A DNA stretch of 31,054 bases from Bdellovibrionota bacterium (GCA_044352465.1 JBILDU010000029.1:1-31054); one strand, 5' to 3'. Shown: positions 779 through 18,730, numbered from the stretch's first letter. Program-made: numbers and translations. The notes: generated from the sequence alone by a model not told the origin.

Positions 779-2770
779 TTATGCCGCAAGCCACGCTTTG
801 ATGCGCTCGGTTACCGCCCCCGGGGTAAATCCGAACTTCTGCGCCAGGAGCTCTCCCGGTGCTGAGGCGCCGTAATGATCGATCCCGATCGTGAGCCCGT
901 CGGAGCCGACGATTCTTTCCCAACCCATCGTGATACCGGCCTCAAGAGATACTTTTTTCGCTTTCGATGGAATGAGTTCGAGCTGGAACGTCGAGTCTTG
1001 TTCCCGCAGAAGCTCGAGGCAGGGAATGGAGACCACCCTAACCCGTTGACCTTCAGCCGCAAGGCTCTTCGCCGCTTCAACCGCGAGCCATACCTCTGAG
1101 CCTGTCGCGCAGATCACGATCTCGGGATTCGGTGAATCCACGACGATGTACGCTCCCCGGCGGATAGAGTCGGCGGTGAAGCCTTCGGGGCGCTCAAGAG
1201 AGGGGAGGTTCTGGCGGGTAAAGAGGAGGGAGCTCGGACGGCTCTTCATCTCGAGGGCGAGTTGATACGCCATCGCTACCTCCACCCCATCAGCCGGTCT
1301 CCAGACGTAGAGGTTCGGTATCGCCCTTAGCGCAGCGATATGTTCGATCGGCTCGTGGGTGGGACCGTCTTCGCCCACCCAGAAACTATCGTGGGTGAAG
1401 ATGAAAAGCGACTGGAGGTGGGAGAGCGCCGCGAGCCTGATAGCGGGGCGCATGTAGTCGCTAAAAACTAAGAATGTGGCGCTGTAGGGGATCCAGCACT
1501 GCGAGTAAGCGAGCCCGTTGACCGCCGCGCCCATGGCGTGTTCTCGGACGCCGAAGCGAATGTTTCGACCACCAAACTCCTGCGCCTGTATTTCACCCCC
1601 GTCTTTAATCGCAGTCTTCGTCGAGGGCTCAAGATCGGCCGATCCGCCGATAAACCACGGGACGTTCTTGGCGATGACCTGAATCGCTTTCCCCGAGAGA
1701 TTCCGGGTGGCGTCCTTCTTTCCATCTTTAAAGGCAGCGAGAAGTTCGCTCTGAAGGTTCGGCGGGAGCTCCCGCTGGAGGTGGGCGGCGAGTTTCTTCG
1801 CTCTGATCGGGTCGTGCGAATTAAATGCGGTAAGTTTTCGCTGCCACTCCTCGTAGCGGCTCGCTTTGGCTTTGTTGAGTGCCGCGCAGAAGTTTTTCAC
1901 TTCATCGGGAACTAAAAATTGAGCATCGACCGGCCAGCCGAGATTTTGTTTCGTGAGCTTGACCTCCTCGGCACCGAGCGGGGCACCGTGAGCATCGTGG
2001 GTGTTGGCTTTATTCGGGCTGCCGAATCCAAGGAGGGTGCGGCAACAGATAATGCTCGGCCGGCTCTTTTCGGCGAGCGCCTTTTCAAGACAGCTGCTAA
2101 CGGCGGCCATGTCATGCCCATCGCAGCTTTGGACGAACCAGTTGTACGCCTCGAAACGTTTCGCCACCGATTCGGTGAAAGTCACCTCGGTTTCGCCAGC
2201 GAGGGAGATCTTGTTGTCGTCGTAGAGGTAGACGAGGTTGTTGAGTCCCAAGTGTCCGGCGAGCGATGCTGCCTCGGCGGTGATTCCTTCCATAAGGTCG
2301 CCGTCGCTCACGAGCCCAAACACTCGAAAGTTAAACAGATCCCCACCGTATTCAGCGGCAAGGAGCTTGCCCGAGAGCGCCATTCCAACGCCGTTGCCGA
2401 AGCCTTGCCCCAGCGGTCCGGTGGTGGTTTCGATCCCCGGGGTCATACCAAACTCCGGGTGTCCGGGGGTTTTGCTGCCCCATTGTCGGAACGCTTTGAT
2501 CTCTTCCATCGGGAGGTCGTAGCCAAAGAGATGGAGGAGCGAGTACCACAACATCGAGCCGTGGCCGGCGGAGAGGATAAATCGATCGCGGTTCGCCCAC
2601 TGAGGATCGTGCGGGTTGAAGTTCATGTAGTCGGCCCACAGCACCGAGCTAAAGTCGGCCGCGCCTAACGGAAGACCCGGGTGTCCGGAGTTCGCCTTTT
2701 CAACGCCATCGAGGGAGAGCATGCGTACGGTGAGAGCAAGTGAAGCGAGGTCCGAATGGGCTGATTTCAT
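779..2770 (-). CDS. tkt: Transketolase
   Basis: 663 aa with SGHPG, RDRFILSAGHGS, TPGHPE, TTGPLGQG, the TPP-binding SDGDLMEG...DDN motif, FGVREHAM and THDSFWVGEDGPTHEP. AAGGA lies upstream of the ATG. Confidence 0.98.
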   Translation of the reverse strand: MKSAHSDLASLALTVRMLSLDGVEKANSGHPGLPLGAADFSSVLWADYMNFNPHDPQWANRDRFILSAGHGSMLWYSLLHLFGYDLPMEEIKAFRQWGSKTPGHPEFGMTPGIETTTGPLGQGFGNGVGMALSGKLLAAEYGGDLFNFRVFGLVSDGDLMEGITAEAASLAGHLGLNNLVYLYDDNKISLAGETEVTFTESVAKRFEAYNWFVQSCDGHDMAAVSSCLEKALAEKSRPSIICCRTLLGFGSPNKANTHDAHGAPLGAEEVKLTKQNLGWPVDAQFLVPDEVKNFCAALNKAKASRYEEWQRKLTAFNSHDPIRAKKLAAHLQRELPPNLQSELLAAFKDGKKDATRNLSGKAIQVIAKNVPWFIGGSADLEPSTKTAIKDGGEIQAQEFGGRNIRFGVREHAMGAAVNGLAYSQCWIPYSATFLVFSDYMRPAIRLAALSHLQSLFIFTHDSFWVGEDGPTHEPIEHIAALRAIPNLYVWRPADGVEVAMAYQLALEMKSRPSSLLFTRQNLPSLERPEGFTADSIRRGAYIVVDSPNPEIVICATGSEVWLAVEAAKSLAAEGQRVRVVSIPCLELLREQDSTFQLELIPSKAKKVSLEAGITMGWERIVGSDGLTIGIDHYGASAPGELLAQKFGFTPGAVTERIKAWLAA

Positions 2771-2840
2771 GGGTATTTATTCCTTAGGCTGCGGGTTGGT
2801 TTTCCTAACTTGCTGATTTATATGGATAATTAGCCATTGG

Positions 2841-2870
2841 AGCGTATCACGGCGAGGTCTGCGATTACAA
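2841..2870 (-). promoter_or_regulatory. Putative sigma70 promoter for tkt
   Basis: The minus strand reads TTGTAA-N18-TACGCT with a TGn extended -10. Motif match only. Confidence 0.35.
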
Positions 2871-2956
2871 GCTGGCAGCTTCTCGTGCGGAGCAGGGTGT
2901 GGGCGCCCCGCGCGACGTAAAGGAGTGCCCCTTTTGTGGAAGGGTACACTAAGCAA

Positions 2957-3174
2957 GCCCCCACGGAGGAGCATCTTTCAGCCGAGCTGCCCAAATCAAG
3001 TTACCGAATGAACCGGTGACGGTGGTGGGTGGCCAGCGTTCTCCCTTTGGCACGCTTCTAGCTAAGTAAATTTCTTAGTAACCCGGTCGTTCTGCCGAAC
3101 GATCGCGGTGAAATCAGAATGCCTGACTCCAGTTGAGTGAACCACCCCCCCCCCCGGTTCACTCAACTTTTTTT
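2957..3174 (+). ncRNA. Candidate orphan structured small RNA (five-way junction plus terminator), family not recognised
   Basis: Bulged closing helix 2965-2984/3106-3130. Hairpins at 2986-3033, 3035-3056, 3061-3079 and 3084-3105, with G-U wobbles on the + strand. TACACT -10-like box at 2945-2950. Intrinsic terminator at 3131-3174. No + strand ORF downstream. Confidence 0.6.
3131..3174 (+). terminator. Rho-independent terminator with a poly-C loop
   Basis: Perfect 13-bp stem AGTTGAGTGAACC (3131-3143) / GGTTCACTCAACT (3156-3168), loop of A plus C11, followed by a T-run to 3174. Confidence 0.85.
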
Positions 3175-3266
3175 ATTTGGATGCTCCGCATCTCGGTATA
3201 AGAGTAGGGAGCCTGGACGTGCGGGACTAGTCGGCGCTTCGTAGCCGCTCGGTCACACCATCAAGG

Positions 3267-3824
3267 TTAAGCGGCCTTCCACTTTATCGAACACCCGAGG
3301 GGGTGAACAAACTTTGCTGTGGGCTCCTGCCCGTGCAACACGGCCTCGATAGCTGGGGAAAGGTGGTCCGCGCGGGGTTTCGAGGGATCTTTCGGGACAT
3401 CGGTTATTGCGCCGTGAAAAGCGAGCTTAAGGTGTGAATCGAAGAGGTAACATTCCGGTGTGCACGCCGCATCGAACGCCCTCGCCACCGCCTGGCTTTC
3501 GTCCCATAAGTAGGGGTAGGGGAGCTTTAGGGCGACCGACTTTGCTTGCATCTTTTCAAAGCTGTCGTCCGGATAGGCTACCGGATCGTTCGAGTTTATG
3601 GTCACCGTTCGAAGGCCGAGTGGGGCGTACTTTCGCGCAATCTGGGCGAGCATCTCTTCAGTGCCTTTGACGTAAGGGCAATGGTTGCAGGTGAAAACAA
3701 CCAGGGCAGCTTTGCCACCACCCAGATAGTCCGCGCCAATGAGTTCCCCGTCGACATTTTTAAGGGCAAAAGTCGGCAGGCTAGAACCTAGGGGTAATTT
3801 ATCGCTCGCGTTCGTTCGTTCCAT
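3267..3824 (-). CDS. Thioredoxin-fold redoxin (AhpC/TSA-like thioredoxin family protein)
   Basis: CNHCPYV CxxC motif, INSND...YPDDSFEKM, YPYLWDESQAVARAFDAACTPE and C-terminal GCSIKWK, typical of this family. Confidence 0.9.
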   Translation of the reverse strand: MERTNASDKLPLGSSLPTFALKNVDGELIGADYLGGGKAALVVFTCNHCPYVKGTEEMLAQIARKYAPLGLRTVTINSNDPVAYPDDSFEKMQAKSVALKLPYPYLWDESQAVARAFDAACTPECYLFDSHLKLAFHGAITDVPKDPSKPRADHLSPAIEAVLHGQEPTAKFVHPLGCSIKWKAA

Positions 3825-18348: not shown

Positions 18349-18435
18349 GGGGTTTGCGCATACCAACGGGGCGGAGGCGGTGCCCAGAGGTGGGAGACTT
18401 TCATTGACACCGGTCATAGCTGATTGATACCACTA

Positions 18436-18635
18436 AGCTCGTGAGTTCAAGGGAAGTCCGGTGAAATTCCGGCACGGGCCCGCCGCTGTATCGGTTGCCC
18501 CAGGGGTATACTTGGGGGGAGCGCACTCAATCCACTGTTTCCGCCCATAAGACGGCGGGGATGGGAAGGACGCGCTTTCGGGGGGGGGGAGGGAGATGCT
18601 CCCCCCGCTGCTGTAGTCAGAAGACCTACTCGCGA
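18436..18635 (+). promoter_or_regulatory. Cobalamin (B12) riboswitch
   Basis: Conserved blocks in the correct order: AAGGGAAgtCCGGTGAAATTCCGGcACGGgCCCGCCGCTGT, CCACTG, GGGAAGG and B12-box AGTCAGAAGACCT. TTGACA at 18404-18409 upstream. Lies directly 5' of a BtuB-like gene. Confidence 0.93.
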
Positions 18636-18730
18636 TTGAGAAAACCTCAAACTCCTCGCTTGCGCGGCATGAGCGGAGGGTGAACGACTACTTCCATACG
18701 GAGGGGGTGTACGCCCCCAAGTGAAAATCA

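Follow-up and report, generated by a model that had tools for sequence, protein, structure and literature searches.

A probable sigma-54-dependent small-RNA gene beside the transketolase gene in an uncultured bacterial order

The window analysed here is a whole stretch of 31,054 nucleotides from a Bdellovibrionota bacterium (GCA_044352465.1 JBILDU010000029.1:1-31054), whose genome (G000) amounts to 3.13 Mb in 170 contigs. The transketolase gene tkt (779-2770) and a gene for an AhpC/TSA-redoxin (3267-3824), the latter followed by genes for an alpha/beta hydrolase and gyrB, are both on the - strand. The space between them carries a + strand non-coding element, the features of which are collected in Table 1. 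A preliminary description of this DNA had placed here a stand-alone RNA of about 210 nt, folded into a five-way junction and followed directly by a terminator. The + strand terminator is real and conserved. With a terminator of its own, on the + strand between tkt and the redoxin gene, the element is indeed not the leader of either flanking gene.

Table 1. Features of the region between tkt and the redoxin gene, in window coordinates
Feature	Position	Strand	Basis and remarks
G+C-rich lineage-specific insertion, outside the conserved unit	2871-2993		Absent from the congener G001
Palindromic DNA site GTTAC-N11-GTGAC, presumed upstream activator sequence	3000-3020		Fixed distance to the promoter in 23 of 25 homologs
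Non-conserved spacer between activator site and promoter	3021-3047		Takes in two strands of the proposed junction, the 3' one of its long arm and AGCGT; no conserved columns among 25 homologs
Sigma-54 (-24/-12) promoter, TGGCACGCTTCTAGCT	3048-3063	+	GG at 3049-3050, GC at 3061-3062; TGGCAC-N5-TAGCT
Predicted small RNA, about 100 nt	3074-3174	+	Minimum free energy (MFE) -39.3 kcal/mol, z -7.55, 0/200 shuffles
Stem-loop SL1 (hairpin 3084-3105 plus three outer pairs)	3081-3109	+	MFE fold; folds of homologs
A-rich linker GAAAUCAGAAU, single-stranded, then the presumed seed, the invariant C/U-rich stretch GCCUGACUCC (3121-3130)	3110-3130	+	Conservation
Intrinsic terminator (13-bp stem 3131-3143/3156-3168, poly-C loop, U run to 3174)	3131-3174	+	RNAalifold

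A BLAST search with the 230 nt of the proposed structure gave matches in three of 61 genomes, namely G000 itself, where the sequence occurs once, the congeneric genome G001 (82% identity) and, over a short length, G032. In the alignment with G001 conservation extended over the 3' half, starting at about 2994 and reaching to the terminator. The 123 nt before it have no counterpart in G001 and no second copy in G000 (blastn); on their own they fold to -50 kcal/mol. This stretch holds the TACACT box (2945-2950) that had been taken for a -10 element, the 5' closing strand of the junction (2965-2985) and the 5' strand of its long arm.

Homologs beyond the reach of BLAST required a covariance model (R1) built on the conserved 3' part. 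At E values up to 1e-3 it matched 25 places in 24 of the 91 genomes of the order and none of the 33 other genomes of the phylum. The order is uncultured, and its MAG records carry the labels Bdellovibrionota or Deltaproteobacteria. Apart from G014, with two copies, each of these genomes has one, and the element is not a dispersed repeat of the MITE or REP kind. The gene is divergent from tkt in 22 of the 25 loci. A downstream ORF was called at 21 loci, the nearest being on the opposite strand in 15; it is the redoxin gene in 11 of the 25, convergent in 10 of those. In five genomes lacking the RNA, three of them from the RNA's own family, no such element was found in the space upstream of tkt.

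With the 25 homologs anchored on TGGCA, the bases T0, G1, G2, C3 and A4 proved invariant and are followed by Y5 and R6; further on, T11 is kept in 19, G13 and W15 in all 25, and C14 in 24. The resulting motif, TGGCAY-N7-GCW, has the same GG-N10-GC spacing in every homolog. RNA polymerase holoenzyme with sigma-54 recognises GG and TGC at -24 and -12, as stated in passages of PMC3844500. In TGGCACGCTTCTAGCT the GG and GC stand one helical turn apart, as in TGGCAC-N5-TTGCW; at -14 G000 has A instead of the consensus T, a position that varies across the family. Table 3 of the same source includes, in the part that bears on this point, glnA (TGGCACAGATTTCGCTTT) and glmY (TGGCACAATTACTGCATA) among the sigma-54 sites bound experimentally in Salmonella, and the promoter of G032, TGGCACAGATTTCGCAT, differs from the glnA site at 1 of the first 17 positions (PMC3844500). 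Counting 12 nt on from the C of GC at -12, transcription is predicted to start at about 3074 (uncertain within 3072-3078). A pairing of GGCA (3049-3052) with UGCC (3120-3123) was present in the MFE folds of all of the first four sequences and entered model R1 as a helix; it was dropped later, GGCA being a promoter element that precedes the predicted start.

Upstream of the promoter, in a region outside model R1, 23 of the 25 homologs have GTNAC-N11-GTAAC(A), its first base 48 or 49 nt ahead of the T in TGGCAC. The palindrome measures 21 bp and ends 27-28 nt before the promoter. In its 3' half-site the G is kept in 25/25 homologs, the T in 19, the two A residues in 18 and 19, and the C in 21. 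The same bases had been read as GTTACCG/CGGTGAC, the hairpin capping the long arm of the junction. Their fixed distance to the promoter is the behaviour of an activator site and not of an RNA arm; moreover, the two GTAAC words of G032 and of G055 stand as direct repeats, so the hairpin cannot form there. From the centre of the palindrome to the predicted start is only about 64 nt, close to the lower end of the usual range of approximately 70-150 bp given in passages of PMC3844500. Its half-sites are the same hexamers as the CbrB subsites TGTTAC/GTAACA, which in Pseudomonas lie upstream of the sigma-54-dependent genes crcZ and crcY according to sections of PMC6296734. Besides the promoter described here, G000 has several other good -24/-12 sites, and none of its 15 other sigma-54-like sites has the palindrome.

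The predicted RNA consists of a short 5' tail, SL1, the A-rich linker, the unpaired C/U-rich stretch and the terminator hairpin. This layout recurs in the homologs at lengths of 85-131 nt. Although the sequence differs each time, a hairpin is found at the place equivalent to SL1 in 23 of 24 homologs, and the 5' parts of the homologs fold with a mean z of -1.9 against mononucleotide shuffles. Since MAFFT does not align these hairpins, SL1 rests on folds of the individual sequences and on four substitutions. All three helix differences between G000 and G001 keep the pairing (G3085A and C3104U are compensatory, C3100U gives a G-U pair), and in a strain contig U3103C turns a G-U into a G-C pair; thus, 4/4 of the substitutions observed preserve the structure. 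For the terminator, RNAalifold on 20 sequences gave 11 pairs, five of them with changes on both sides. The stem GUUAAGUGGG/CCCACUUAAC is unusually conserved, its loop varies in length between strains, and the U run exists on the + strand only.

In the presumed seed, CTGACTCC is invariant in 20/20 aligned homologs; a subgroup of family f2 carries CCUAACUCC in this region. The stretch GCCUGACUCC is unpaired in the MFE folds. An AUG within it is not conserved, making a peptide unlikely, and the reading frame is not closed before the terminator. The sequence thus predicts a short transcript with its own promoter and an intrinsic terminator and with no ORF.

Because R1 included promoter columns, the association of promoter and RNA was checked in three ways that were independent of the model. 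First, a metagenome pattern built on seed and terminator only was found in two contigs, and both have TGGCATGTTTCTNGCAT 66-69 nt upstream of the seed together with a matching palindrome. Second, a seed-only pattern, applied to the order's 91 genomes, was found at 20 places in 19 of them, with 0 control matches; all 20 are known promoter-bearing loci, so that no copy without a promoter exists among the genomes searched. Third, a pattern of palindrome and promoter only was found at 12 places in the 91 genomes, against two for the reversed control. The RNA follows in 9 of the 12, including two copies that R1 had missed (G005 and G036). One of the remaining places precedes the gene for a signal-peptide protein (G015), and the other two are G+C-rich, belong to family f9 and lie, as judged by eye, in coding sequence. 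A first metagenome pattern (GTAACC...TCANAATGCCTGACTCC) had given no matches. A pattern scan of species genomes gave six, made up of three true homologs and three chance matches in unrelated MAGs. In their MAG records the three homologs bear the labels Deltaproteobacteria, Pseudomonadota and Bdellovibrionota.

Among 24 sequencing runs listed, no RNA run carried this locus. Logan contigs of four DNA runs were compared with the window over 2700-3400. One contig of run X9, with a depth of about 6.5, is approximately 90% identical and covers 2981-3400 with 41 differences, 38 of them listed; we use this strain footprint as supporting evidence only. A second X9 contig leaves the window at precisely 2875, where the lineage-specific stretch has its edge. 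Among the listed differences of the first contig, none falls in the promoter region (3047-3064) or in 3104-3142, which comprises the 3' base of SL1, the linker, the seed and the terminator stem. The palindrome has one, G3018A, towards the consensus GTAAC. The spacer has nine in 3025-3046, the predicted start carries C to A at 3074, and past the terminator there are 21 in 3187-3260.

As to the machinery, G000 encodes AAA+ activators in addition to carrying the presumed upstream activator sequence: there are nine strong Sigma54_activat matches, eight of them with a Fis-type HTH_8 and six with a receiver domain. None of these activators reaches an NCBIfam equivalog cut-off. No match to the rpoN models PF04552 or PF04963 was found in the G000 assembly, which is 94.9% complete and in 170 contigs. 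Both are present in the congener G001 and in G002, G032 and G055, and PF04552 also in G012; rpoN being found in relatives, an assembly gap is the likely reason for the miss. A phylogenetic profile covering five of the eight HTH_8-bearing candidate activators (L061-L068) did not single one out, as all five have counterparts in family f9, which lacks the RNA: at the thresholds used, L061 in 34, L062 in 22, L067 in 28, L068 in 25 and L066 in 31 of 36 genomes. The RNA may therefore be a dispensable member of an older regulon.

Taken together, window positions 3000-3174 probably constitute a small-RNA gene with its control region, composed of an activator palindrome, a sigma-54 promoter and an RNA, about 100 nt long, that would act in trans. 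In the proposed mechanism, an enhancer-binding protein of the NtrC/Fis-HTH type would bind the palindrome and activate RNA polymerase-sigma-54 on TGGCAC-N5-TAGCT; transcription would run from near 3074 to the intrinsic terminator at 3174. The most likely mode of action is pairing in trans by the invariant C/U-rich stretch, whose CUCC core is complementary to Shine-Dalgarno sequences. Through CUGACUCC the RNA would pair with mRNAs at their ribosome-binding regions, reducing translation when the activator senses its signal.

Two genome-wide complementarity scans of G000 for targets were both noisy and gave no credible candidate. The duplex scan covered 35,924 crude start sites, and the wobble-aware scan returned 291 sites, none at a clear ribosome-binding site. 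The best duplex-scan match and one ranked lower (in ORFs named by eye as C86 phosphorylase-like and C7 dehydrogenase-like) were rejected, both being internal to longer open frames. The translation-start regions of tkt showed no excess complementarity to the RNA (mean z 0.01, 22 loci). Models of Hfq and ProQ were unmatched in all of five genomes, so the usual chaperones of such RNAs seem absent, and the CsrA model was matched in 5/5.

The constant position beside tkt raises an alternative, that the sigma-54-driven RNA acts in cis. The transcript to which it would be antisense would enter tkt either from the redoxin gene or from a promoter lying past the RNA gene, and tkt would be controlled by duplex formation or by transcriptional interference in the divergent region that tkt and the RNA gene share. 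The divergent orientation persists while the downstream neighbour varies, and in genomes without the RNA, such as G012, the redoxin gene and tkt are almost adjacent and co-directional. The distance from the tkt start codon to TGGCA ranges from 59 to 538 nt (median 155, 22 loci). It is at most 120 nt in 7/22 and 59-64 nt in two, with little or no room for a separate tkt promoter, so that in some genomes transcription of tkt must overlap the control region. In addition, the terminator hairpin has no U run on the - strand and would not stop antisense read-through. In G000, however, 277 nt separate tkt from the promoter; three of the 25 copies are away from tkt, and the second copy of G014 is kept elsewhere. 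Sequence conservation would be superfluous in an antisense RNA, whereas across families both GCCUGACUCC and the terminator stem hardly vary; it is the conservation of the seed that makes us favour action in trans. We therefore consider control of tkt in cis unlikely.

Action in trans could also take the form of protein titration, as by CrcZ with Hfq/Crc or CsrB with CsrA, with no pairing to mRNA and with the invariant stretch and terminator stem as the binding site. The terminator stem is conserved far beyond the needs of termination, and the scans for mRNA targets and the test of tkt starts came out empty. The control module likewise resembles that of CbrB and crcZ, with the same half-site hexamers before a sigma-54 promoter and an RNA gene (sections of PMC6296734). 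As for possible partners, Hfq and ProQ were not found, and CsrA, the sole chaperone found, is itself an improbable one because the G000 RNA has no GGA motif. Known protein-sponge RNAs carry repeated motifs, but each RNA of this family has a single conserved stretch. Titration thus appears improbable, and pairing of the seed with mRNAs remains the preferred reading.

The junction fold itself was reproduced. Every helix that had been claimed could be read in the sequence, the non-Watson-Crick pairs are G-U on the + strand, and 2965-3130 (+) folded alone has exactly the closing helix and four arms as its MFE structure (-60.7 kcal/mol, z -3.45, with 1/200 dinucleotide shuffles as good). Over 2945-3174 the + strand also folds better than the - strand (z -5.07 vs -2.47). 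The bulk of this excess folding energy, however, falls in 3073-3174 alone (z -7.55), and the equivalent 110-nt upstream regions of 19 homologs show no excess folding (z from -1.16 to +1.48, averaging about 0). Among the homologs only SL1 and the terminator are kept, the other arms lying in sequence that is not conserved or belongs to DNA motifs. With the promoter at 3048-3063 and the start near 3074, the AGCGT/ACGCT (3035-3056) and GCTAAG/CTTAGT (3061-3079) arms overlap the promoter and start region. The close strain differs at 3030 and 3039, which would disrupt the long arm and the AGCGT helix, and has no listed change at the partner positions 2989 and 3052. Hence a junction-dependent RNA of about 210 nt (2957-3174), read from a sigma-70-type promoter near 2945, is very improbable, its 5' closing strand and -10 box being missing from G001 and its cap hairpin behaving as a DNA site at a fixed distance from the -24/-12 promoter. 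What stands of that proposal is a + strand non-coding gene with its own terminator, to which the hairpin 3084-3105 belongs as well; its length is reduced to about 100 nt, and the 5' closing strand and three of the four arms fall upstream of the promoter as DNA-level features, namely activator palindrome, spacer and -24/-12 elements. The case is a caution for RNA hunting in sequence alone, as operator palindromes and promoter spacers that neighbour a genuine small RNA can yield a convincing multi-helix junction when folded in silico.

The RNA family is undescribed so far, although its kind, the sigma-54-dependent small RNAs, is already known. No Rfam 15 family reached its gathering score in 2771-3270, and none was matched in 20 homologous loci, in agreement with the earlier suggestion of a possibly undescribed family. 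Full-text searches of literature outside subscription journals found no description of the RNA gene. Even when 2771-3270 was scanned permissively (E up to 10), only DnaX, Mahella-1, narK and DUF805b appeared, at E values of 0.28-6.6 that are far under the thresholds; these four matches are at chance level, and Qrr is not among them. Mahella-1 aligns with 2981-3081, and narK with 3049-3090 by way of an unpaired 5' consensus, GGCaCAgcucUUGCU, that itself reads like a -24/-12 promoter. Membership of either family was rejected, the scores of 13.1 bits for narK (E 6.6) and 16.2 bits for Mahella-1 (E 0.88) comparing with gathering scores of 43.2 and 70.7.

What had appeared to be an orphan large structured RNA thus becomes a testable module: an activator site, a sigma-54 promoter and an RNA, roughly 100 nt in length, with a 10-nt stretch that does not vary. 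It would offer a handle on the regulon of organisms known from metagenomes only. Sigma-54-dependent small RNAs are few, and Qrr, CrcZ/CrcY and GlmY/GlmZ stand at the top of major lifestyle or metabolic switches. An example in an uncultured freshwater lineage with undetectable Hfq and ProQ would extend this design principle. Because the RNA is fixed beside transketolase and its operator words resemble those of CbrB, we tentatively suggest that it might be the output node of a global switch, for instance for carbon or starvation status. A two-component sigma-54-dependent activator might have this small RNA as its almost sole direct target, as LuxO has Qrr, and the circuit, working without Hfq or ProQ, might be of the CbrB-CrcZ or LuxO-Qrr type and have evolved independently outside the Gammaproteobacteria.

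Of the known systems, the Qrr RNAs of Vibrio, under LuxO and sigma-54, share with the predicted RNA a length of about 100 nt, an own terminator, a sigma-54 promoter and an upstream site for an NtrC-type activator. Moreover, the activator module here appears almost dedicated to the RNA gene (9/12 places with palindrome and promoter in 91 genomes). LuxO is described as an NtrC homologue in a small-RNA quorum-sensing circuit in passages of PMC11407668. The RNA described here nevertheless has no sequence or structure match to Rfam Qrr at E up to 10, belongs to another phylum in which Hfq was not found, and usually occurs in one copy per genome. Qrr RNAs have several stem-loops, whereas this RNA has one internal hairpin.

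CrcZ, which with CrcY is controlled by CbrB and sigma-54 in Pseudomonas, is longer and acts as a protein sponge; the present RNA, in contrast, measures about 100 nt and contains a single conserved C/U-rich stretch. The likeness lies in the control region, where the CbrB subsites TGTTAC/GTAACA compare with (T)GTNAC/GTAAC(A) here. CbrB works with three subsites, far upstream and with their centres 20-25 bp apart, together with IHF (both points from sections of PMC6296734), whereas here there is one 21-bp palindrome. CbrAB itself is called unique to Pseudomonadaceae in a passage of PMC8871633.

The enterobacterial GlmY and GlmZ, under GlrR and sigma-54, are likewise small-RNA genes with bound sigma-54 promoters, TGGCACAATTACTGCATA for glmY and TGGCACGTTATGTGCAAT for glmZ (in the relevant part of PMC3844500). 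GlmY works by protein mimicry, as put in a passage of PMC4152352. The RNA found here differs from both in size and fold and has no Rfam match. The RNA gene beside tkt would work like Qrr with LuxO, CrcZ/CrcY with CbrB and GlmY/GlmZ with GlrR, and is a member of none of these families.

In one genome of the same order (G014), two nearly identical copies of the predicted small RNA were found, one adjoining tkt and the other adjoining a COX15/CtaA gene. Two divergent copies, with the seeds CCUAACUCC (L072, contig C64 of G005) and CCCUACUCC (L073, contig C69 of G036), were not picked up by the covariance model R1, which was built from the conserved 3' part of the locus, and were recovered solely by means of the promoter pattern. 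Since R1 overlooked these copies, the number of genomes carrying the small RNA (24 of the 91) should be read as a lower bound.

The same control module was also present in front of a protein gene. At approximately 1500-1700 of contig C136 in G015 (L074), the same palindrome, presumed to be an activator site, and TGGCAT-N7-GCT lie upstream of a gene whose product has a signal-peptide-like N-terminus. Among the 91 genomes, this gene is the sole protein-coding candidate seen for the regulon to which the small RNA would belong.

The source genome (G000) encodes nine enhancer-binding proteins and contains several -24/-12 sites. A search of its whole assembly gave no match to rpoN, which is probably explained by a gap in the assembly. 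In the whole genomes of G000, the congener G001 and three further members of the order (G032, G055 and G012), none of the five matched the Pfam models of Hfq and ProQ; each of these genomes does have CsrA, represented by 1-4 matching stretches.

Two stretches, one upstream of the predicted small RNA and one in its terminator, differ between the window and related sequences (see table). Folded by itself, the G+C-rich stretch reached -50 kcal/mol, and a strain contig of ~90% identity parts from the window sequence exactly at 2875, within this stretch. The poly-C loop is C11 in the window versus C6 in G001; compared with the window, run X8 showed a 2-nt deletion and run X9 a 1-nt insertion.

Coordinates of the features in the window
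Feature	Position	Strand	Remarks
G+C-rich stretch, 123 nt	2871-2993		missing in congener G001, single copy in G000
Terminator poly-C loop	3144-3155		length differs among strains
Cobalamin riboswitch aptamer (Rfam)	18426-18647	+	50.5 bits (gathering score 31.5), E 5.9e-10

The Rfam narK RNA model gave a weak match at 3049-3090, because its unpaired 5' consensus, GGCaCAgcucUUGCU, resembles a sigma-54 -24/-12 promoter.
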